A stretch of 64,000 nt of DNA from a candidate division FCPU426 bacterium (GTDB lineage: Bacteria; Oederibacteriota; Muellerivitia; Muellerivitales; Muellerivitaceae), in the NCBI GenBank assembly GCA_963796105.1, contig CAWCKJ010000002.1:160001-224000 (forward strand). The letters are read 5' to 3'. The notes beneath the pieces were generated by a model. The model did no database searches. It saw only the letters and a program-made list of their open reading frames with translations, and was not told the DNA's origin. The position numbers and the translations under genes are program-made. How positions within the stretch are numbered: the stretch's first letter is position 1; each line of letters opens with the position of its first letter. This document shows positions 2,648-13,382 of this stretch, piece by piece.

Positions 2648-3964
2648 ATGAATAAGGCCCAAAACACCGCCGCGGGGTTCCTTGTAAAGTCCCTCGCGAG
2701 CCTGCTATCCAAGAAGCAGATGCTCAACAAGGCCGCCCTGATGACGGGGGCCAAGGTCCTGGGCATGGGCATCGGGGCGGCGGGAACCATCTACGCGGCC
2801 AGGTGCCTGGGGCCCCGCAGCCTGGGACTGTCGGGAATGGTCCAGAACATCGCGGGGCAGGGCATGCTCGCCACGGAATTCATCTCCACCACGGTCCTGA
2901 TCCGCGAGTACAAGAACGCCAGGGACGCCGGGGACAGGGACAGGATCGTCCAGGCCGCCAACGGCTTTTGGCTCCTGCCGGGCCTGGTTTTCTCGGTCCT
3001 GGCGGCGTTGTTCTTGATCCTCAAATGGGTCCCAGGCGATTACCAGACCGCCGGCTGGTTTTTCATTCCCTTGATCCTCCTGAGTTCCGTCCAGCCGGAT
3101 TGGATCTTCCAGGCGGAGGAGAAACAGCAACACCAGTCGCTTTTCGCGCTCATCCAGCCCCTGCTGATGACGGGCCTCTACCTCATCTGGTTCAAGCCGG
3201 GCGCGCAGGCCAGCGCCGATTTGTTCGTGAAATCCTCGGCGGCGGCGGTGATGTTCTTTGTTTACTGGCGGGGAATTTTCAAGCTTAGCTCCCTCAAGGG
3301 GTTCTTCATCCGGATCGATTTTTTCAGGGACATGAGGGACCTGGTCCTGAAATCCCGCTGGCTTTTCATTTCAGCAATCGCCGTTTACGTCTACAGCACC
3401 CTGGAACAGCCCCTTTTGGGCTGGCTTTTCTCGGTGGAGGAGCTCGGGAAATACCGCACAGCCTCCTCCGCGACGAACGCGGCCTGCTCCTTTTTCAACC
3501 TGATCCCCCTCATCCTTTACCCGAGGTTCATCGAGTGGCGGAAAAGGGGGGAAGAGGTCCTTTGGGTGAGGCAGTTGAAGCTCACGGCGCTTTTCTCGGC
3601 GGGCGGGGGCATCCTGGCCCTGGGAGGGTTTTGGCTGATCCCGCTTCTTTACCCCTACGTCTTCGGGCCTTCCTTCGCGGGAGCGGCGGTGCCCTGCGCC
3701 CTGCTGCTTCTATCGGAAATCATCGTGGTCATCAGCGGGCTCTTCAGCTGGGGCTTGTTGACGGACCACACCTACGACAAATTCGTGTCCTCCACCCTGA
3801 TCGGCACGGCGGTTTTCTCCCTCGCGACGAACCTTTTGTTCATCCCGAGGTTCGGGATGATGGGGGCGGCGCTGGTGCATTTGGCGAGCGAGATTCTGAT
3901 ATTGGGGGTGTTCTTCGGGCTGGCTTACAGGAGAATCGGGAACATTAGGAAGAAACAGGTTTGA
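2648..3964 (+). CDS. Wzx-like oligosaccharide flippase (MOP superfamily)
   Basis: About 12 hydrophobic segments, ARCLGP, LGKYRTA, NLLFIPRFGMMGAA; glycan-locus context. Confidence 0.85.
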   Translation: MNKAQNTAAGFLVKSLASLLSKKQMLNKAALMTGAKVLGMGIGAAGTIYAARCLGPRSLGLSGMVQNIAGQGMLATEFISTTVLIREYKNARDAGDRDRIVQAANGFWLLPGLVFSVLAALFLILKWVPGDYQTAGWFFIPLILLSSVQPDWIFQAEEKQQHQSLFALIQPLLMTGLYLIWFKPGAQASADLFVKSSAAAVMFFVYWRGIFKLSSLKGFFIRIDFFRDMRDLVLKSRWLFISAIAVYVYSTLEQPLLGWLFSVEELGKYRTASSATNAACSFFNLIPLILYPRFIEWRKRGEEVLWVRQLKLTALFSAGGGILALGGFWLIPLLYPYVFGPSFAGAAVPCALLLLSEIIVVISGLFSWGLLTDHTYDKFVSSTLIGTAVFSLATNLLFIPRFGMMGAALVHLASEILILGVFFGLAYRRIGNIRKKQV

Positions 3965-3971
3965 AGAAATT

Positions 3972-4213
3972 CTTTTCTTTTTTTGTCCCCATCATTCAAA
4001 CCCTCATTTAAACAATGGGGTTTCGTTATAAAATGTATTTATTGCTGGCTCGCTCCACACATTCCCCTGTGGGTTTCTAGTTATCTGAACTTGCGAATTT
4101 CCTTTTAATATTCCTAGCGATAAGGCCTAGAGGGCTCCCCTTACGCTTATATGAGTTGATCCTTTATGCCGCTTGGGTGGGGTTTTCATGAAGGGGACGG
4201 GGTTTTTTAAAAC
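3972..4213. repeat. ~245-nt structured intergenic element, copy A (candidate ncRNA or non-autonomous element)
   Basis: Colinear with 7707-7952; invariant 29-mer TCGCTCCACACATTCCCCTGTGGGTTTCT; conserved stems. Confidence 0.85.
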
Positions 4214-4240
4214 AAAAGCAAACCTTACCTTGCGGCCTAC

Positions 4241-4315
4241 GAGACTTTGATACTGGGGGGGGTGTTCTTCGGGCTGGCTTACAGGAGAATCGGGAAAATA
4301 CGTAGAAAAATATAA
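4241..4315 (+). pseudogene. Orphan second copy of the flippase 3' end
   Basis: Encodes ETLILGGVFFGLAYRRIGKIRRKI* versus gene EILILGVFFGLAYRRIGNIRKKQV*; GGGGGTGTTCTTCGGGCTGGCTTACAGGAGAATCGGGAA is identical. Confidence 0.85.
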
Positions 4316-4345
4316 TTTTGAATTGAAGGAAAAAACCACATATCA

Positions 4346-4850
4346 ACACAGGTTCTTTCAGAACCACAGCAACAACCTTGATTTAATACGGCTAAAAAAT
4401 ATCAAAAGCAACAACTTCAACATTTAACCACAGGTTCTTTCAGAACCACAGTAACATCCTCAATTTGGTACGGCTAAAAACATCAAAACAACAACATCAT
4501 CTCACCACAGGTTTCTTCGAAACCACATGCCGAACCTCATTTAAGCATTCAATGAAAGTTCGGTACAGATTTACTATAAATCTGCCCCGGCAATTCTCTC
4601 ACTCGGCTGGTAGCCTCATGCGGCCTGTATAGCACCGATTTCCTTAACCGATTTATGGAAAATCGGCGCAGAGACTCAGCTAAAACATTCTATGGGTTGC
4701 GGCTAAAAACATCAAAACAACAACATCATCTCACCACGGGTTCCCGCGGAACCACAGCAACAACCTCGATTTAAAACGGCTAAAAAATATCAAAAGCAAC
4801 AACTACAGATAACCCCTTACCAAGGCACGGGTTTCTTCGAAACCACAGTA
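4346..4850. repeat. Tandem array of five GGTTYY-NNN-RRAACC hairpin units with A/C-rich linkers; includes copy 3 of the 232-bp element (4504-4736)
   Basis: Hairpins at 4351, 4433, 4510, 4739 and 4830; recurring GGCTAAAAA(C/AT)ATCAAAA(G)CAACAAC linker. Confidence 0.9.
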
Positions 4851-4914
4851 AGACAAACATATTCCGGTTTACCACAGGGTTTTTTTAACGCAAATGCAAA
4901 CCGGCATTTAAAAT

Positions 4915-5205
4915 TTATTTTGATTTTGGGGATAAATCCATGGCGCCGTGGACAACAGCCAAGACATCTATTTGATCGGATTTAATCCGGTAAAAAATGC
5001 GGTAGGGGCCTTCTATGACTTCTCGTATTTGATCCGCGTCAAACTCCGGTACTCTGCGGCCGGATGTGGGAAAATCGGCAATTTGTTTGGACCTGCCGGT
5101 AAGGCGATCGACCATCCGTTTAGCGTAATCCGCTGAATCCCGAGCGATATGGGCGTGGAGCGCGTTGAGATGGTCTTCAGCCGAGTGAGTCCAACGGACC
5201 CTCAT
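4915..5205 (-). CDS. RelE/ParE-family toxin
   Basis: MRVRWTHSAEDHL...FPTSGRRVPE...IREVIEGPYRIFYRI...VLAVVHG. Confidence 0.9.
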   Translation of the reverse strand: MRVRWTHSAEDHLNALHAHIARDSADYAKRMVDRLTGRSKQIADFPTSGRRVPEFDADQIREVIEGPYRIFYRIKSDQIDVLAVVHGAMDLSPKSK

Positions 5206-5390
5206 CCAGGAAGACCGTATTTGGCCCGGATATCTCCTACGTCTTTAGTAAGACCAGCTTCGCTATCGGAAAGCCCCCGCTCAATGGCTTCCAAGACATA
5301 GATCTTGTGCATTAAATCATCCCATGTGGCGTTTGAGGGCATTTGGTCAATCAGTTTGTGAGCCTCTTCTTTTTTCATGATCTTGGACAT
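5202..5390 (-). CDS. Cognate antitoxin of the RelE/ParE toxin
   Basis: 62 aa, KLIDQMPSNATWDDLMHKIYVLEAIERGL; GGGAGG RBS; ATGA overlap with toxin. Confidence 0.8.
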   Translation of the reverse strand: MSKIMKKEEAHKLIDQMPSNATWDDLMHKIYVLEAIERGLSDSEAGLTKDVGDIRAKYGLPG

Positions 5391-5508
5391 GGGTTGCCTC
5401 CCGCTTTCATAATGTAGTTTATCAAGATGAAATACCCAAATCAATTCGGGCTGAAATGATTGAAAAGGCCAATCCCCGCGTTTAAAACTATAAATCGAGA
5501 AACAGGAA

Positions 5509-6324
5509 TTACGCGAATAGTCTCAAGAGAAGCCTGACGAATTTCCCGAGGGCCTGGTAGCCAGGCAGGGCATTCAAGCGCAGGCAGAAGCCGCTGGTTT
5601 TCACCCGGTACTCGAGAAGGCTGGTCCAGGAGAAAACCATGATCCTTCGGATCTCCAACAAGTCCTTCGCGAAGAGGACCGGGCCGCTGTCCACCGCCAC
5701 GCCGAAGGAAAAACCTTCCCGGGCCGCGGCCGCCTTGATTCCGGAATTCACCGCCCCATAGGGATAGGCGAAGGAAACCACTGGTATTTTGAGGAAGGAC
5801 TCCAGCGCTTTTTTGGAGCCGCCGATCTCCTTACGAATTTCCCCCGGGCTTAACGCCGTCAAATCCGAGTGGCTCATGGAATGGGCGCCGAATTCCACCA
5901 GCCCGCTCCTGAGCATCTCCTTGATCTGGGAAGGTTTCAGGAGGGAAGCCTCTGGGTAGCCATCTTTCAGGTCCCAGAAATTGTTCCTGGGGCGCCTGTT
6001 ACCGAGGAGGTAAAGCACGGCCTTCATCCGGTACTTTCCCAGCAGGGGGAATAAATAATGATAAAGGTCCTCATAACCGTCATCGAAGGTGAGGATGACG
6101 GGTTTCCTGGGGAGGGGGCGGCCCAGGAGATCCATGAAGCCGATGGACACGAAGCCATGGCTCCTCAGGTAACACAACTGCCGGTCCATGGCGGACTGGG
6201 AAACATGCAGGTTGAATCCAGTAGGGGGAGGTTCCTCCGCCGCCACGCGGTGGTACATCAGCACCGGAAGCTCGCGGACGCGGGAAAGGTTGTCTTTCAA
6301 TATTTCCGGATTGGGTTTAAACAA
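5509..6324 (-). CDS. Polysaccharide deacetylase (CE4)
   Basis: PVLMYHRV, LTFDDGY, GAHSMSH, FAYPYG motifs. Confidence 0.9.
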   Translation of the reverse strand: MFKPNPEILKDNLSRVRELPVLMYHRVAAEEPPPTGFNLHVSQSAMDRQLCYLRSHGFVSIGFMDLLGRPLPRKPVILTFDDGYEDLYHYLFPLLGKYRMKAVLYLLGNRRPRNNFWDLKDGYPEASLLKPSQIKEMLRSGLVEFGAHSMSHSDLTALSPGEIRKEIGGSKKALESFLKIPVVSFAYPYGAVNSGIKAAAAREGFSFGVAVDSGPVLFAKDLLEIRRIMVFSWTSLLEYRVKTSGFCLRLNALPGYQALGKFVRLLLRLFA

Positions 6325-6460
6325 GGAATACCTTCGCGCGGGGATAACGGCTTTGTGTATTATATAGCGGCTTTTGCCGAAGAAATGATAGCCGCCGCGA
6401 GGAATTTTTGAGAAAAGAAACCCACTCCTATTTCCAGGGACACTTGAGAGGACGCCGGCC

Positions 6461-7663
6461 GTGAAAATCCTCGTGGTCCACGATTTTTACAGCTCCATCA
6501 GCCCCTCCGGGGAAAACGGGGTCGTCCTGGCCGAGATCAAACTGCTGAAATCCCGGGGCCACAAGGTTGAATTGTTCGCGCGCGCCAACGACGGCCTCAG
6601 GGTCATGGGAACCAGGGGCTTGATCCTGGGGGGCCTTTCCACGCCCTGGAACCCCTGGGCGGCCTCCGCCCTCCAGGAGAAGGTCCGGGATTTCCGGCCG
6701 GATGTTGTCCATGTCCACAACACTTTCCCCCTTTTGTCCTCGGCGGTCTTCCACGCGATTGGAAAAAGCGCCGCGAGGGTCCTGACCCTCCACAACTTCC
6801 GGCTTTTCTGCCCCAACGCGATCCCACTGCGGGACGGCGGTATCTGCACCGAATGCCTGGACCGGCGCTCGGTCTGGCCCTCTTTGAAATACGGGTGCTA
6901 CCGCGGGAGCCGGATCGGGACCGTCCCGCTGGCGCTCAGCGTCGCCCTGCACCGCTTGATCGGCACCTGGAAAAACCAAGTGGAGGTTTTCATCGCCCTG
7001 ACGGAATTCCAGAGGCGCAAGATGATCCAGGCGGGCCTGCCGGGGGAAAAGGTTCATTTGAAGGCGAATTTTTTCCCGGGCAATCCGAGGCCCATGCCCT
7101 GGGCCAAGAGGAATTCCGGCGCGGTTTTCGTGGGGAGGCTCAGCCAGGAGAAGGGGCTGGAAACCCTCACTCGGGCCTGGGCCCTTTGGGGAAAGGATGC
7201 CCCCGAGCTGCGGGTGGTGGGAAGCGGGCCCCTGAGAAAAAAATTGGAGCAGGCGGCCAAGGGTCTGCCAATCAGGTTCCTGGGGCAGTTGAGCTTGAAA
7301 GAAACACACCGGCAGATCGCGGGGGCCAAGATCCTGATCCTGCCCTCGGAATGGTTCGAGGCTTTCCCGATGGTGTTGGCGGAATCCTTCGCCTTCGGAA
7401 CGCCGGCTGCTGTGTCGGATATCGGGGGGCTTTCCACGATCATCCAGGATGGGAAAAACGGGCTGGTGTTCAAGCCGGGGGACAGCGACTCCCTGGCCGG
7501 GGTCCTCCGGAAAGGCTGGAACAAGCCGGGCTTGCTGGAAAGGCTGGGGGAGGGGGCCAGGAAATCCTTCGAGGAGTCCTACACCATGGAGGCCAACTAC
7601 CGGCAGCTCATCGCTATTTATGAGAAAGCTGTCGGAGCGGGACGGGCCCAAGAAAACGGTTGA
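6461..7663 (+). CDS. Glycosyltransferase family 4
   Basis: PDVVHVHN, TLHNFRLFC, VGRLSQEKG, WFEAFPMVLAESF. Confidence 0.9.
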   Translation: MKILVVHDFYSSISPSGENGVVLAEIKLLKSRGHKVELFARANDGLRVMGTRGLILGGLSTPWNPWAASALQEKVRDFRPDVVHVHNTFPLLSSAVFHAIGKSAARVLTLHNFRLFCPNAIPLRDGGICTECLDRRSVWPSLKYGCYRGSRIGTVPLALSVALHRLIGTWKNQVEVFIALTEFQRRKMIQAGLPGEKVHLKANFFPGNPRPMPWAKRNSGAVFVGRLSQEKGLETLTRAWALWGKDAPELRVVGSGPLRKKLEQAAKGLPIRFLGQLSLKETHRQIAGAKILILPSEWFEAFPMVLAESFAFGTPAAVSDIGGLSTIIQDGKNGLVFKPGDSDSLAGVLRKGWNKPGLLERLGEGARKSFEESYTMEANYRQLIAIYEKAVGAGRAQENG

Positions 7664-7706
7664 TTCCATCTTCCCGCACTTTAGATAAGCAACCCACCAG
7701 CAAGAG

Positions 7707-7952
7707 CTTTTTTCTTTTTTTCGTCCCCATCACTCAAGCTTTCATATAATCCATGGGGATTCGTTATGCAAAGGGAGCACGCTAGTTCGCTCCACACATT
7801 CCCCTGTGGGTTTCTCGATATGAAACTTTTAGATATTCCCTTTTAGATTGCTAGTTGAAATAAACTTAGAGGGTTCCCCTTGCGCTCATTTAAAATTGTT
7901 CCAATAGGCCTTTTGCAGGAAGCTTTCATGAAGGGGCCGGGGTTTTTAAAAC
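7707..7952. repeat. ~245-nt structured intergenic element, copy B
   Basis: Colinear with 3972-4213; same 29-mer at 7787-7815. Confidence 0.85.
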
Positions 7953-7989
7953 CGACAATAAAAGATTTTCCAATACAAAATATAACGAC

Positions 7990-8775
7990 TTGGAGAGAAC
8001 GGTGAAGTCTTCGACGGAAAACATGTTGGGATACGCCGTGGACAAGAGGGAACCGGCCTTGTACGTGGACGAGGTCTCCGACTGGATCGCGAAAGGGGAC
8101 CATTGCAAATGGCTGGCCTGCGTCAATCCCTACTCCTACATGGTGTCCCTCAAGGATGAGGTATTCTCCAAGGCCCTGCGCGACGCGGACTGGCTGATCC
8201 CCGACGGGATCGGGATCGTGATCGCCTCGCGGCTGTTGAGGGGCGACATCCGTGAGAGGGTGACGGGCTTCGACTTGTTCGACCTTCTCCAAAAGAGGCT
8301 GGATGAGGCCGGGGGATACAGGGTGTTCATCCTGGGCTCCACCGAGGTCAACCTCTCGGATATCTGGGAGAAGATGAAGAAGGATTACCCCCATTTCAAG
8401 GTGGGGGGAATCTACTCCCCGCCGTACAAGAGCGAATTCACCCGCGAGGACACCCAGGCCATGGTGGATGCCGTCAACGCGTCGGGCGCCGACGTGCTCT
8501 GGGTGGGCATGACGGCCCCCAAGCAGGAAAAATGGATTTTCGAGAACCGCCACAAGCTCAAGGTGAAGTTCGCCGGGGCCATCGGCGGGGCCTTTGACTT
8601 CTACTCGGGCCGCAAGATGAGGGCGCCGAGGCTTATCCAGAAGGTGGGAATGGAATGGGTGGTCAGGCTGGCCCAGGAGCCCTTCCGGCTATGGCCCAGG
8701 TTTTTCCTGTCCCTGCTTTTTTTCTGGAAGCTGTTCCTGGCCATGATGTTCGGCAAAAAGCCGATGAAGGAATAG
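7990..8775 (+). CDS. WecB/TagA/CpsF-family glycosyltransferase (GT26)
   Basis: LIPDGIGIV, ERVTGFDL, LWVGMTAPKQEKW, GMEWVVRLAQEP; true start may be GTG 8002 or ATG 8023. Confidence 0.9.
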   Translation: MERTVKSSTENMLGYAVDKREPALYVDEVSDWIAKGDHCKWLACVNPYSYMVSLKDEVFSKALRDADWLIPDGIGIVIASRLLRGDIRERVTGFDLFDLLQKRLDEAGGYRVFILGSTEVNLSDIWEKMKKDYPHFKVGGIYSPPYKSEFTREDTQAMVDAVNASGADVLWVGMTAPKQEKWIFENRHKLKVKFAGAIGGAFDFYSGRKMRAPRLIQKVGMEWVVRLAQEPFRLWPRFFLSLLFFWKLFLAMMFGKKPMKE

Positions 8776-8802: not shown

Positions 8803-9201
8803 TCATGGGATGCAACGGAAACCATGCTCCCGAAAATGTTTGTCGAAGGTAAGGATCTCTTTAATCCCGTTCCGGCGCATTACCTCAAAACTGACACAAT
8901 CCACCAAACTTAAATCCCTTTTCTTGGCCGTCATTACGGCGGACAGCCCCGCGTTATGCGCTGCCTCGTCCACCCAAACCACCGATAGGATGGGGACGAC
9001 ATCCTTCTGGAAATCGGATAGGGCCGCGAGACCCAGCCGGTTTTGGATAAGGGAACAGGTCTCCAAAAGAATGTAATTAGTGCAAACTAGCGCCGGGTCC
9101 GTTTCCATCAGGGATTTCCACGACTGGTCCGCCCTCTCGTGAAAACGGTCGTTCATGGTTAAAAGGGCGATGAAAAAAGAGGTGTCGACAAAGACGCTCA
9201 C
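8803..9201 (-). CDS. vapC: VapC-family PIN-domain toxin
   Basis: VFVDTSFFIA...LSLVDCVSF...TFDKHF. Confidence 0.9.
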   Translation of the reverse strand: MSVFVDTSFFIALLTMNDRFHERADQSWKSLMETDPALVCTNYILLETCSLIQNRLGLAALSDFQKDVVPILSVVWVDEAAHNAGLSAVMTAKKRDLSLVDCVSFEVMRRNGIKEILTFDKHFREHGFRCIP

Positions 9202-9443
9202 TGGGCGTAATCCCCGGCCAGGTACTTGTCATGGCGCAGGGAAAGGTCGGAATGGCGGGAATGGAATTTCCCGGATATGGCGATGGCGCGTTCCCGCCTT
9301 TCCTCCGGACTCAGACTTCCGTTTTTCAGGTATAAATCAACCCCTTGGCGGATGGCCTCGGCCATTGAGATTTTTCGCTTCCGGGATAATTTTTTCAAGG
9401 AAATGGTTTGTTTCTGGGTCAATTGGATCTGGGTGCGGACCAT
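9198..9443 (-). CDS. CopG/RHH-family antitoxin (VapB-like)
   Basis: MVRTQIQLT...SMAEAIRQGVD...DLSLRHDKYL; GTGA overlap with vapC. Confidence 0.85.
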   Translation of the reverse strand: MVRTQIQLTQKQTISLKKLSRKRKISMAEAIRQGVDLYLKNGSLSPEERRERAIAISGKFHSRHSDLSLRHDKYLAGDYAQ

Positions 9444-9566: not shown

Positions 9567-10715
9567 CTAAATCAAAACACCTTTTATCAAATCTCGGACT
9601 TTCTCGCCCGAGGTTTTCCAATTCAACCTTTGGGAATATTCCCCGAAAGAGGAAAGGGCCAGCCGCTCATATTCCTTGGGGTCTGTCATGAGCCTGGTGA
9701 TGAAATCGCAATAGGCTTCGGGGCCGGCATTGACCGGGAAGGTTTGGCCGTTTTTGCCGTTGAGGATGACGGAGGGGACCCCCCCGATCCGGGGCGCCAG
9801 GGAGGGCAGGCCGAAGGACGAGGCCTCGGCGAAGACGATGCCGAAACACTCAGCCCTGGTCGGCACCACCAGGAAATGGGCCTGGGAGTACAAGTCGTCC
9901 AGCTTTTTCCGGCCCTCGCCCGTCTTTTTGGATAGGACTCCATGCCGTTTCACGAAATCAGGCAGGGGGCCTGGCGGCTCGCAGCCTACCACGTCCAATT
10001 GGGTCTTGATCCCGCGGTTGTTCATTTCCTCCGCGATTTTCAGGGCGGTGTCCCCGCCCTTCCAGCGCCAATTCCCGCCGATGAAAAGCAGTTTGCAGGA
10101 ACCGAAACTTTTGGAAGCGGTGATTTTCTTGACCATGGAAGTGTCCCGGCCGCATTCCAGGTTCGCCCCAAAGGGCACGACCTTCACCTTCGCTGGGTCC
10201 AGGCCGTAGTCCTTGACCGCGGAGTCCGCGGCCCATTTCGTGCTGAAAATGGCCAGGCGGCACTTGTTGAGGAACAATTGTTCCGTCAGGTTCCCATCCC
10301 TCAGGGATTCCGCCGGCAGGTTGGAATCATAGGCCGGGATGAACTCACCCCATCCGGCGAAGGTGAAATCGCTCCAATAGATAACGGGTTTGGTTGTTTG
10401 CAAATAAGAAAAAGGCGCGGAACCGCCGATCACGAAAACGGCGTCGCTTTCGACTTTCAAGAGGGCTTGATCCGCCCGGCGGCACAAATGCCGGACCAAG
10501 GGCGGGTATCGCAGCCGGTCGAAATCCCTTCGCTGGAAGGCCTTGTACAGAAGCTGTTTTGCCCGGGAAGTCAGGAAATGGAATCCCTCGCCCAGGTTTC
10601 CGATGGGGATGGTGGTTATACCGGCGCCGGTCAAGGCGCGGTTCATGTAATAGGCCGTCCCGGACCAGACCGACAGGTTCGAGGAATCGTCCTTGGTGAT
10701 GTAGGCTAAACGCAT
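9567..10715 (-). CDS. Glycosyltransferase family 4 (paralog 3)
   Basis: MRLAY...WSGT...VPFGANL...WKGG...RAECFGIVFAEASSFG; GAGG RBS before ATG 10715. Confidence 0.9.
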   Translation of the reverse strand: MRLAYITKDDSSNLSVWSGTAYYMNRALTGAGITTIPIGNLGEGFHFLTSRAKQLLYKAFQRRDFDRLRYPPLVRHLCRRADQALLKVESDAVFVIGGSAPFSYLQTTKPVIYWSDFTFAGWGEFIPAYDSNLPAESLRDGNLTEQLFLNKCRLAIFSTKWAADSAVKDYGLDPAKVKVVPFGANLECGRDTSMVKKITASKSFGSCKLLFIGGNWRWKGGDTALKIAEEMNNRGIKTQLDVVGCEPPGPLPDFVKRHGVLSKKTGEGRKKLDDLYSQAHFLVVPTRAECFGIVFAEASSFGLPSLAPRIGGVPSVILNGKNGQTFPVNAGPEAYCDFITRLMTDPKEYERLALSSFGEYSQRLNWKTSGEKVRDLIKGVLI

Positions 10716-10833
10716 GGAACCTCGGTAAAAAACAATGAAAAATGAACAATGAAAAATGAAAATCGAAAAGATTTCTTCTTTCACTTTTCGCATAGCCGCT
10801 CATTATCAATTGTTCATTATACATTTTTCATTA
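10716..10833. repeat. Heptamer inverted-array spacer, copy A
   Basis: (AATGAAN)n ... (NTTCATT)n; near-identical to 11984-12108. Confidence 0.9.
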
Positions 10834-11983
10834 TATTCTTCGTACCGCAGTGCTTGTGGATGAGATCCCTCACCTTTTTTCCCGAGGTTTCCCAGTTTAA
10901 CCGTTGCTGGTATTCCTTTAAGGAGGAAAGGCACAGCTTTTCATAGAGGTTCTTGTTTTTCATGAGACCCGCGATGTACCCGCTGTAGGCCTCAGGGCCG
11001 GCTTTGAGCGGGAAGGTCCGGCCGTTTTTACCGTCCCGGATGACTGAGGGAACGCCCCCGATCTTGGGCGCGAGGGAGGGAACCCCGAAGGACGAGGCCT
11101 CGGCGAAGACGATCCCGAAAGCCTCCGACCGGGTGGGCAGGATCAGGAAATGGGCTTTGGCGTACAGCTCATCCAATTTCTCCCGCCCTTGCCTGGTTTT
11201 CTTGGAGATGAAACCGTGGGGTTGGACGAAGCCGGGGACGGGGCTAGGCGGTTCGCAGCCAACGACATGCAATACAGTCTTGATCCCGCGCCGGTTGAGA
11301 AGCTCCGCAGTTTTCAAGGCGGTTTCCCCGCCTTTCCAATGCCAATTCGTCCCAACGAACAACAATTCGCAGGCATGGGCGCTTTTCCCCGCGATGATTT
11401 TCCTGACAGAGGAAGAGTCCCGATCACATTCCAGGTTCGCCCCGAAAGGCACGATTTTGACTTTCTTGGGATCGAGATCATAGTGCCGGAAGGCGGTCTT
11501 CGCGGCCCAATCGGAGCTGAAGACGACCAAACGGCATTTGGAAAGGAACTCCTGCTCCATTTTTATTTCGTCCCGGATCGTCTCGGAACAAAGACGGGAG
11601 TGGTAGGGATTAAAATCCACCAGGGAGGCGAGTGTGGAGTCCGCCCAAAAAACGATGGGATTATCCGTCCGGGAAAAGGAAAGGGGAAGGGGATCCACGC
11701 AAAAAATCGCGTCATAAGTCTGGGATAAAAGGGCCTTCTCGATTTGCCGGTAAAAGTGCCGGTTCAGCGCGGGATCGCCTTGCCGAAGGTATTCCCTGGA
11801 AAGAACAAATTTATAGAGGACTTTCTTGATTCCGGTGGATAGGTAATGCCAGCCCTCCTTCAGGCGATCGACCGGGAGGATCTGGAGACCTGCTTGCTCC
11901 AACGAGTGCCTCATGTAGAAGGCGGTGCCGGACCAGTAGTTGATATCGGAAGAATCCCCGATGGAAACGTAGGCTAGGCGCAT
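10817..11983 (-). CDS. Glycosyltransferase family 4 (paralog 2)
   Basis: Same motifs as its neighbours, RSEAFGIVFAEASSFG. Confidence 0.9.
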   Translation of the reverse strand: MRLAYVSIGDSSDINYWSGTAFYMRHSLEQAGLQILPVDRLKEGWHYLSTGIKKVLYKFVLSREYLRQGDPALNRHFYRQIEKALLSQTYDAIFCVDPLPLSFSRTDNPIVFWADSTLASLVDFNPYHSRLCSETIRDEIKMEQEFLSKCRLVVFSSDWAAKTAFRHYDLDPKKVKIVPFGANLECDRDSSSVRKIIAGKSAHACELLFVGTNWHWKGGETALKTAELLNRRGIKTVLHVVGCEPPSPVPGFVQPHGFISKKTRQGREKLDELYAKAHFLILPTRSEAFGIVFAEASSFGVPSLAPKIGGVPSVIRDGKNGRTFPLKAGPEAYSGYIAGLMKNKNLYEKLCLSSLKEYQQRLNWETSGKKVRDLIHKHCGTKNIMKNV

Positions 11984-12108
11984 GAAACCTCGGTAAAAAA
12001 CAATGAAAAATGAACAATGAAGAATGAAAAATGAAAATCGAAAAGATTTCTTCTTTCGCTTTTCGCATTGCCGCTCATTATCAATTGTTCATTATACATT
12101 TTTCATTG
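11984..12108. repeat. Heptamer inverted-array spacer, copy B
   Basis: As copy A but with one extra AATGAAG unit. Confidence 0.9.
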
Positions 12109-13258
12109 TAACTTTCGGTTTGCAGTGCTTGAGGATGAGATCCCTCATCTTTTTACCGGAGGTCTTCCAATTCAAGCGCTCCTCGTATTCCCTGAAGGAG
12201 GAAAGGCATAGTCTTTCATAGCGCTTCCTCTCTTTCATGAGCTTGGCAATGTAACCGCAATAGGCCTCGGGAGGGGCGCCGGGGGGGAAGATCTGGCCGT
12301 TCTTACCGTTATGCACGGCCGTGGAATTACCGCCCACGTCCGCGGACAAGGAAGGCAGGCCGAAAGAGGAGGCCTCGGCGAAGGTGACGGCGCAGCAATC
12401 CGCCCTGGAGGGAAGCAGCAAGAAATGGGATTCGGAATACAATGCGTCCAAAAACCTGCGGCCCCTTCCGGTATTTTTGGACAGGAACCCATGGCGCCGA
12501 ACGAAACCAGGCGTGGGGCCAGGCGGTTCGCATCCCACCACGTGCAACAGCGTCTTGATGCCGCGCTGGTTGAGAAGCTCCGCCGTCCGCACCGCCAAAT
12601 CCCCGCCTTTCCTTTCCCACTGAACCCCGACGAACAATAATACGCAGGGATCGAAATAGCGGCCCGCGATGATTTTCTTGACCGCGGGAAGGTCCCGGCC
12701 GCATTCCAGGTTTGCCCCGAATGGAACGACTTTCACCTTTTTAGGGTCGACATCATAGTGCTGGAGGGCGGTCTCGGCCGCCCAGTCGGAACTGAAAACG
12801 GCCAGGCGGCACTTGGAAAGGAGCTTCCGCTCCATATTCATCTCATCGCGGATCGTCTCGGCGCACAGGCGGGTGTGCTGGGGATAATAATCCACCAAAG
12901 CCGGGAAGACGCAGTCGTGCCAATAGACGACCGGTTTATCCGTTTCCAGGGAGGAGAGGGGAAGGGTGTCCACGCCGAAAACAACGTCGGGCTCTATGGC
13001 GGAGATGGCTTTTCCGGCCTGGCGGCTTAAGCTTTTAAGCAGGGAAGGGTCCCCATGCCTGTGATAATTTTTCCGCAGGAACAGTTGATAAAGGAATTTT
13101 TTCAAATGGGTCGTCAGGTATAGGAAGCCTTCTTTCAATGGACCGGCGGGGATGACCTCCAGTCCGCTTTCCCGCAGGGAGCGGTGGATATAGTGGGTCA
13201 AGCCGGACCAATCATCCTGATCCGAGGGATCTTTACGAGTCAAATACGCTAATTTCAT
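12092..13258 (-). CDS. Glycosyltransferase family 4 (paralog 1)
   Basis: MKLAY...VPFGANL...RKGG...RADCCAVTFAEASSFG. Confidence 0.9.
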   Translation of the reverse strand: MKLAYLTRKDPSDQDDWSGLTHYIHRSLRESGLEVIPAGPLKEGFLYLTTHLKKFLYQLFLRKNYHRHGDPSLLKSLSRQAGKAISAIEPDVVFGVDTLPLSSLETDKPVVYWHDCVFPALVDYYPQHTRLCAETIRDEMNMERKLLSKCRLAVFSSDWAAETALQHYDVDPKKVKVVPFGANLECGRDLPAVKKIIAGRYFDPCVLLFVGVQWERKGGDLAVRTAELLNQRGIKTLLHVVGCEPPGPTPGFVRRHGFLSKNTGRGRRFLDALYSESHFLLLPSRADCCAVTFAEASSFGLPSLSADVGGNSTAVHNGKNGQIFPPGAPPEAYCGYIAKLMKERKRYERLCLSSFREYEERLNWKTSGKKMRDLILKHCKPKVTMKNV

Positions 13259-13382
13259 ATGGAAATAATCCTTTGCGTCCGAGGCCAGTATCGCGAAACA
13301 CCCGGGGTCTAAGGGCAAATCTTAATAACTGTGCCAAAGGGTGTCGGCTGAGAAATACCTGAAATTCAAACAAGGAAAAAGG

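Follow-up and report, generated by a model that had tools for sequence, protein, structure and literature searches.

Two diverged fold-back repeats in a glycan gene cluster of a candidate division FCPU426 bacterium, probable relics of miniature-transposon passengers with a core present in several phyla

The 64,000-nt stretch of contig CAWCKJ010000002.1 analyzed here (the window) contains two diverged fold-back copies of a repeat that are probably stranded passengers of miniature transposons (MITEs) and not regulators of the glycan genes beside them, a reading to which we assign a probability of about 60%. Both copies are likely worn relics of an uncatalogued hairpin-shaped DNA unit, which is a dispersed, non-coding fold-back repeat of 107–245 nt with a patchy distribution among genomes. 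The repeats are MITE- and ERIC-like and share one core across MITE types and phyla. MITE interiors are usually regarded as neutral filler. Here, a 34-base hairpin tip has stayed near-intact in three phyla and four MITE types as the surrounding DNA drifts, and sister tips can replace it at one and the same site; such retention and swapping point either to selection for some function or to a mover. The window itself yields a modest outcome, two relic copies.

Organization of the window copies

The copies are the only two in the 4.98-Mb genome (blastn and nhmmer) and are organized as shown in Table 1. The original prediction, made from the sequence alone, described a duplicated structured element behind glycan genes; the duplication is present and colinear (blastn: 73.7% over 243 nt, E 1e-31), and each copy follows a plus-strand glycan gene. 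The 5′ T-tract, TTCGTTAT, an invariant 29-mer (4050–4078), TAGAGGG, CCCCTT, AAGGGG and the 3′ GGGGTTTTT-AAAAC all align in both. Reading frames overlapping the window copies are unrelated shadow frames only, and the unit as a whole has no transposase or conserved coding frame, the shared protein clusters being translations of the repeat itself. The predicted lack of a known family also stands, as Rfam 15 gives no match with the whole window (gathering threshold), with 3800–8100 (by E-value) or with 20 + 10 homologous loci. Literature searches by core strings and by topic found no description of this repeat family, the supplements of Weinberg-type RNA screens and PMC3733652 falling outside their scope. 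The glycan cluster in the window is also rich in repeats and toxin-antitoxin loci.

Table 1. Coordinates of the repeat copies and adjacent features in the window
Feature	Position	Strand	Remarks
Polysaccharide flippase (PF01943)	2648..3964	+	Stop codon ~6 nt before copy 1
Copy 1, fold-back unit, long solo form, without transposon ends	3971..4213	+	
Copy 1, 5′ T-tract	3971..3984	+	
Copy 1, 5′ arm of covarying end-to-end stem	3983..4007	+	16/17 consensus pairs kept
Copy 1, conserved core, left half	4051..4073	+	
Copy 1, variable insert (64 nt) splitting the core	4074..4137	+	Short forms lack the insert; folding not above shuffles
Copy 1, conserved core, right half	4138..4147	+	
Copy 1, 3′ arm of end-to-end stem and GGGG-T-tract tail	4176..4213	+	
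Diverged second copy of flippase 3′ end, directly after copy 1	4223..4312	+	39 nt identical to 3904–3942
GT4 glycosyltransferase	6461..7663	+	Ends ~45 nt before copy 2
Copy 2, fold-back unit, long solo form, without transposon ends	7707..7952	+	14/17 consensus pairs kept
Copy 2, conserved core, left half	7788..7810	+	
Copy 2, variable insert (66 nt)	7811..7876	+	
Copy 2, conserved core, right half	7877..7886	+	
WecG/TagA glycosyltransferase, downstream of copy 2	7990..8775	+	

None of the four terminal-repeat types described below lies within ~450 nt of either window copy, and flanking duplications of at least 6 bp (6–9 bp looked for) are absent from their ends. Empty alleles of the two junctions were not found, the single DNA run being uninformative with 6 of 30 bins covered. 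Since the window copies have neither terminal repeats nor duplications, we infer their MITE origin from their relatives.

Distribution and MITE carriers

The 34-base centre is found in three or more bacterial phyla but is absent from most genomes of each. Within the window's own phylum the core pattern occurs in 7 of 99 genomes, all of one family, with 65, 10, 2, 2, 1, 1 and 1 matches; it is present in 7/251 genomes of the phylum of a Nitrospira genome, in 5/351 of the phylum of an Acidobacteriota genome (one being a chance coding match by inspection) and in 0/301 of the phylum of a Thermodesulfobacteriota genome, with no hits to backwards-pattern controls in any phylum scan. At least 120 metagenomic loci contain the core. 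The 83 loci from a 17-mer scan of genome contigs included many chance coding matches, which were removed by demanding the rest of the core. The core pattern has no matches in viral contigs, and the short element has none in plasmids and phages.

In the window's bacterial family the hairpin sits inside MITEs, often as tail-to-tail pairs. Nine MITEs of 427–618 bp have two cores between 22-bp terminal repeats, with 8-bp flanks matching at 8, 6, 1, 6, 6, 8, 7, 8 and 7 of 8 positions; a 276-bp MITE has one core and 8/8 flanks, and core-less MITEs with the same ends are 109–332 bp long. The same 22-bp repeat, with 2–4 differences, bounds elements of 1965, 1966 and 2024 bp (flanks 8, 8 and 7 of 8) in a sister genome (G001) and in the window's genome (G000), and these encode IS1595 transposases (NF033547, 202 and 193 bits; cut-off 75). 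The family's MITEs have a T-tract like that of copy 1 after the terminal repeat, and one end of an IS1595 element has such a tract too. PF12762 has no match in G015 (82% complete) or G013 (99%), the genomes richest in IS1595-ended dimers, which weighs against the MITE-passenger reading. The MITE-borne relatives support the alternative, raised in the original prediction, of a non-autonomous element.

Three further types of carrier are found. Two have perfect 4-bp duplications, in 4 of 10 elements with the ends CCCYRATCCGAAA and in 5 of 6 with the ends CCGGATTATTCATGAA; the third is a 190-bp element with a 9-bp duplication, although three related elements match at only 2, 6 and 3 of the 9 positions. 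Viral scans for an IS source of the two 4-bp-duplication end types gave 0 and 90 hits, the latter mostly in one phage coding stretch, and plasmids contained only a core-less 216-bp Persicobacter repeat with one end type. No IS family is assigned to that end type, as its likeness to a G001 IS1380 end spans only 8 bases. The core also occurs in many solo copies without a MITE, especially in Nitrospira operons.

The T-tract, the covarying end-to-end stem and the conserved core at the hairpin tip form one module. In the window's family an IS1595-family DDE transposase would act in trans to move the MITE and amplify the module, and other transposases may do likewise in other lineages. Solo copies, including the window pair, could have lost their ends or stem from recombination, and probably no longer move. 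Filled and empty forms of one operon spacer in cultured Nitrospira, together with an IS1595 transposase with matching ends, make a selected function or a mover behind the core's retention directly testable.

Several described repeats are similar in part. Passages of PMC3184786 describe bacterial MITEs (Correia/NEMIS, RUP, Nezha) that are likewise non-coding, multi-copy and capable of long fold-backs, and relatives of the window copies share with them IS-related inverted repeats, target duplications, and filled and empty sites. The window copies differ in having neither terminal repeats nor duplications, and the family differs in that one core is common to at least four types, with duplications of 8, 4, 4 and 9 bp, in different phyla. 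Ends in common with an intact IS are present in the family's carrier MITE (G001, G000), absent from the window copies and not found in G015 and G013. ERIC, described in the same source as a ~127-bp TA-flanked intergenic imperfect palindrome with a conserved centre, resembles the unit in form, in size and in its location behind genes; the unit is set apart by description and by Rfam, being 107–245 nt, not TA-flanked in the window's family and found in other phyla. The bcr1 repeats of the Bacillus cereus group (~155 bp) are also mobile, with compensatory stem changes and non-conserved genomic positions, but are cruciform, have 5-bp duplications, are shown to be transcribed and belong to one species group only (passages of PMC3184786). 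REP sequences measure 20–40 bp and end in a GTAG or CGTC tag (parts of PMC3733652); like REP/BIME/REPIN with RAYT or TIRYT, the units are extragenic palindromes mostly downstream of genes and often in inverted pairs, but they are longer, lack the tag and do not flank the Y1 transposase genes of five element-rich genomes.

Covarying arms and a conserved core

The original prediction took stems with variable loops as a sign of structural selection. This holds for a helix that pairs the 5′ end of the unit with its 3′ end, the arms of which have 103 two-sided changes versus 36.8 in shuffled data (31 elements of the window's subfamily) and 172 versus 66.7 (47 short elements). It is not borne out for the local stems that were proposed: among 31 homologues CCCCAT/ATGGGG is paired in 67.6% of cells versus 67.1% in shuffled data (203 of 500 shuffles as high), and CCACA/TGTGG and CCCCTT/AAGGGG combined have no two-sided changes. 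Taken singly, neither window copy has a better fold than shuffled sequence (z −1.26 and −0.71). The arms also contain asymmetric loops that are conserved. One subfamily has 41 A–C versus 12 G–T pairs and the window's subfamily 39 G–T versus 19 A–C, wobble biases that point to opposite strands. Selection for folding, together with template-switch correction, may maintain the arm complementarity. Covariation screens for new RNAs will pick up such repeats.

Conservation in seven long forms is ~85–90% in the core, partly by construction as the searches fixed its left half, 55–60% in the arms and 44% in the interiors. The core is kept as arms and interiors drift, which plain MITE cargo does not account for; recognition as a single-stranded loop could conceivably preserve it. 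In ten copies, from at least two phyla, the core is split at a fixed point by a segment of 64–74 nt, conserved in length and variable in sequence, which is absent from 191 of 200 distinct cores (the metagenome pattern favoured short forms). A stable structure is not evident in these inserts (z −2.5 to +1.9; only one of ten below −2). Long forms of ERIC carry ~70-bp inserts at fixed internal sites.

Other repeats are found inserted into the core itself, and scans of the unit for promoters and terminators are at or near chance. The HDV-like ribozyme, kink-turn and G-quadruplex were rejected as candidate structures, judged by consensus features, with needed bases varying or missing in the alignments.

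Genomic sites and alternative readings

The copies have a preferred orientation, extending to the whole family what had been noted for the window pair. The 92 scored loci fall into 36 where a long frame stops 60 nt or less before the C-rich strand only, seven where one stops after it, on the opposite strand only, 14 with both arrangements and 35 with neither (36 versus 7, p 9e-6, related loci not being independent); the bias is weaker with Pfam-confirmed genes alone (20 versus 9, p 0.06). Under the MITE-passenger reading, copies would persist mainly just past stop codons, the mRNA carrying the C-rich strand, and might act as REP- or ERIC-like hairpins with a mild effect on 3′-end stability or processing. 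Of 33 Nitrospira nuoA–nuoB spacers examined, 31 are readable; three of these are empty, and the others contain this core in five, a sister core between the same arms in 11, a third core in five and other repeats in seven. In the window's own family the sister core is found in 0 of 31 genomes. Solo Nitrospira copies begin 2–14 nt past a stop codon. A gene end is duplicated directly beside a copy in the window (Table 1) and at locus L354, and inverted gene-end duplications are seen in 7 of the 31 spacers at p ≤0.02 (in related genomes); long flanking direct repeats are by estimate not above chance as a general feature.

These observations allow a reading in which the hairpin with its core is itself mobile, an enzyme reading the core in single-stranded form, as DNA or RNA, and copying the hairpin into palindromic targets and gene ends, with the MITEs as targets or hitch-hikers. 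Several facts agree with this reading: one core occupies the symmetry centre in four unrelated MITE types and also occurs solo, core-less MITEs exist, sister cores interchange at orthologous sites, and copies lie close to stop codons, some of them beside duplicated gene ends. We consider it unlikely. It is opposed by the neighbouring genes, in which no transposase, nuclease or RT is linked among 204 ORFs, by the lack of general flanking repeats and by the lack of matches in viral contigs, phages and plasmids. In five element-rich genomes the 12 Y1_Tnp loci are not flanked by the unit (best profile score 4.4 bits), and RT and IS110 each occur in one of the five; with no link to the copies there, Y1/RAYT/TIRYT, RT and IS110 were rejected as movers and yielded no enzyme for solo movement. 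It is distinctly doubtful that an undescribed mobility pathway recognizes the core, a pathway in which interchangeable tips conserved across phyla are copied through single-stranded DNA or RNA into gene ends and MITE centres as a MITE parasite with its own enzyme, the 64–74-nt slot marking the full-length form.

A host-selected 3′-UTR or intercistronic RNA element, whose core is a binding or cleavage site tuning the upstream mRNA and whose spread in MITEs is secondary, appears improbable. It would account for the orientation bias, with the C-rich strand in the transcript, for retention in operon spacers such as nuoA–nuoB across diverged Nitrospira genomes, and for the asymmetric arm loops, which simple palindrome correction would remove; passages of PMC3184786 describe RNase E sites made by ERIC and compensatory changes in bcr1, and part of PMC12306157 reports that translation is reduced where a REP lies within 15 nt of the stop codon. 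However, in 10 of 31 relatives the nuoA–nuoB spacer is empty or has unrelated repeats, the core is missing from most genomes of each phylum, other repeats insert within it, the window copies show no folding signal of their own, and template switching can produce arm covariation without RNA selection, as described in PMC5941160.

The original prediction favoured an RNA that regulates glycan operons in cis or the orphan guide of an RNA-guided system. Both now seem highly improbable, in spite of three G001 copies that, like the window pair, lie in glycan clusters and of the superficially guide-slot-like segment in ten copies. That segment is missing from nearly all distinct cores, with the metagenome pattern favouring short forms, and within the window's family the inserts share homology and hence were inherited, not reprogrammed. 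A fixed strand and a location 5′ of a coherent gene set, as in a riboswitch or cis-regulatory leader, are not features of the unit, and no promoter signal exceeds chance. The Pfam scan of neighbours covered the 204 ORFs of up to 420 aa within 1200 nt (longer ORFs were clustered only) and, with the clustering, revealed no recurring family, no effector gene and no IS110, TnpB/IscB, RT or other transposase domain. Glycan specificity is largely refuted: the copies lie both 5′ and 3′ of mostly unrelated genes on both strands, with 29 gene ends and 27 gene starts facing the unit, and glycan or LPS genes make up about 11 of the 103 neighbours with a Pfam label.

Window copies and their surroundings

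The two copies are colinear and diverged, as the original prediction held (73.7% identity over 243 nt; blastn, E 1e-31), and all the motifs it listed, the invariant 29-mer included, are found in both. They are the only copies in the 4.98-Mb genome (G000) by blastn and three profile searches, neither folds better than shuffled sequence, and neither has any Rfam match, consistent with the proposed absence of a known family. The upstream glycan genes are also as described, a flippase before copy 1 and a GT4 gene before copy 2; toxin-antitoxin pairs and other repeats are scattered through the glycan cluster around them.

Copies and neighboring features in the window
Feature	Window coordinates	Remarks
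Copy 1	3972-4213	
Copy 2	7707-7952	
Flippase 3′ end and its repeat	3869-3964 and 4223-4312	Flanks diverged, 39-nt middle identical
Second repeat system: 237-nt repeats, short CCACAG...GAACCAC hairpins, nested twin-hairpin units	903-1477, 1699-2003, 4331-4850	
Toxin-antitoxin pairs: HicAB; ParE + small partner; PIN + ribbon-helix-helix	2012-2520, 4915-5444, 8803-9443	
Three tandem paralogous GT4 genes	9567-13318	Minus strand

The flippase 3′ end recurs immediately downstream of copy 1 in diverged form with an identical 39-nt middle, which suggests, in a single case, that the element edge was the site of a recombination or a deletion. The flippase repeats resemble two alleles joined by crossover around a 354-nt segment. 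The HicAB, ParE and PIN pairs alternate with glycan genes, with repeats near each, and AT-rich heptamer hairpins (10726-10837) separate the three GT4 genes.

Anatomy and distribution of the hairpin unit

Both copies are long forms of a fold-back hairpin with the common core CGCTCCAC(C/A)CAT(C/T)CCCNNNTGGG-N-CCCTTNCGCT at its tip, enclosed by either of two arm types. The short type is widespread, a hairpin of ~107 nt with fixed asymmetric motifs close to its base and strongly covarying variable stems (89.4% paired vs 77.4%; two-sided changes 172 vs 66.7; 0 of 500 shuffles). In the window's subfamily a 5′ T-tract is accompanied by an end-to-end stem of 17 pairs (91.4% of cells paired vs 74.7%; two-sided changes 103 vs 36.8) and by interiors that are fixed in length and variable in sequence; the three local stems originally proposed show no covariation. 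Among seven long forms, identity is 90% and 83% in the core halves (the left-half figure being partly circular because the searches had fixed that half), 55-60% in the arms and 44% in the interiors.

The core is split in the window copies by inserts of 64 and 66 nt. Ten such inserts were found (64-74 nt), and they fold poorly; those within the window's family are mutually homologous, and those of Nitrospira and genome G008 have no detectable relation to them. The orthologous Nitrospira copies L278 and L279 keep the core with diverged 73-74-nt inserts, which interrupt the core where the window's insert does and show no detectable homology to it. Other repeats are inserted at or beside the same core tip in genome G015 and the sister genome G001; by eye, the twin-hairpin unit of the window's second repeat system is also inserted into the core in G015 (L037, L099, L238, L240) and G001 (L309).

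The copy-1 sequence is matched in 7 of 61 relatives (six matches in G001), in both orientations and in some instances beside non-glycan genes. A census of the left half of the core, allowing one mismatch, found it in 7/99 genomes of the phylum of G000, all within one family (65 matches in G015, 10 in G013, one or two in five others). Outside that phylum it is present in named Nitrospira genomes (8-10 matches each in three) and in 7/251 genomes of the Nitrospira phylum; in the phylum of an Acidobacteriota genome it is present in 5/351, one of these by chance, and in that of a Thermodesulfobacteriota genome in 0/301. At least 120 metagenome loci also have it, and searches of viral contigs, phages and plasmids gave no match. 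Specificity for glycan operons is not supported, because of the 103 neighboring ORFs with a Pfam label (204 scanned; own count) only ~11 are glycan or LPS genes and the rest are unrelated housekeeping genes. No transposase or reverse transcriptase was identified by Pfam among the 204.

Carrier elements and orthologous sites

In the window's family, units of two subtypes occur paired tail to tail between copies of a 22-bp terminal repeat, which is present in 12 of 31 family genomes. The same repeat ends 1965-2024-bp elements in G001 and G000 that encode IS1595-family transposases (one G001 copy is frameshifted) and have 8-bp duplications; IS1595-family elements make duplications of 8 bp. Among nine two-core elements with these ends, the 8-bp flanks match at six or more positions in eight cases and perfectly in three; a single one-core element has 8/8 flanks, and core-less elements also exist. 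Elements of three further end types also contain this core: two of the types have 4-bp duplications (perfect in 4/10 and 5/6, read by eye), and in the third a duplication of 9 bp is present in 1/4. Two observations speak against a simple account. No IS1595 transposase match was found in G015 or G013, and the window copies have none of the carrier ends and no duplication, although IS1595-type ends do exist in G000, on an intact element and on core-less 109-bp MITEs.

G000 has 58 PF12762 matches, mainly from two high-copy IS1595-family elements with ATGC...GCAT ends, and at least six of the core-less 109-bp MITEs, with GGGACTTAT-type ends. A core-less 216-bp repeat of Persicobacter plasmids (L544, L545; 2005-2220) shares the CCCGGATTATTCA end, which matches 20 places on one plasmid record. 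A solo window-subfamily copy with short inverted ends (L135, ~2221-2394) is flanked by a direct repeat of 12 bp exact, or ~17 bp with one mismatch.

The spacer between nuoA and nuoB (named by Pfam) is readable at 31 of 33 loci: three are empty, five have this core, 11 have the same arms around a sister core, five carry a third core and seven other repeats. At a second junction this core in one Nitrospira genome corresponds to the sister core in another. The Nitrospira spacer (L334-L363) is a hot spot directly behind the nuoA stop codon where hairpin repeats of at least five kinds occur, together with a 45-nt module at differing arm positions and, beside some elements, direct or inverted copies of the nuoA 3′ end.

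The hairpin module is most likely MITE cargo, mobilized in trans by DDE transposases, of IS1595 type in the window's family. The carrier relationship is established for the relatives; we infer transposition of the carrier MITEs, and the window copies would be stranded solo copies. In the leading rival account, the hairpin would travel by a route of its own and colonize MITE centers and gene ends; Y1, RT and IS110 enzymes, tested as movers in five element-rich genomes, show no link to it. The chief puzzle is why one core is conserved over four end types and three phyla, and why it is exchanged with sister cores.

Known systems and possible RNA-level effects

The unit works like a MITE/ERIC-type fold-back repeat, although the terminal repeats and duplications of MITEs are found in relatives and not in the window copies. 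It does not group with REP/RAYT elements, Rfam families or cis-regulatory leaders, and the guide RNA reading of the original prediction likewise finds no support. Literature searches by core strings and keywords returned no description of the family within the library covered. New here are the link between the window's long form and the dispersed core, the IS1595 end match for core-bearing MITEs, the count of carrier types for one core, and the finding that one orthologous site can be empty, filled or swapped.

The window's solo copies would be carried on read-through transcripts and may affect mRNA 3′ ends, by analogy with effects described for ERIC and REP hairpins in two reports (PMC3184786, PMC12306157). 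Inverted repeats can be perfected by template switching without selection on RNA, as one account has it (PMC5941160), so arm covariation alone is no proof of RNA. Wobble pairs point to the G-rich strand for the short type and to the C-rich strand for the window's type, whose pairs had been chosen on the C-rich strand, and thus no folded strand can be named. Short elements tend to lie behind a stop codon so oriented that the C-rich strand is sense, in 36 vs 7 of 92 cases (both 14, neither 35), or 20 vs 9 with Pfam-confirmed genes only (p 0.06), a test inflated by related genomes. Sister-core elements have the same preference (6 vs 2 of 12), and both window copies agree with it.
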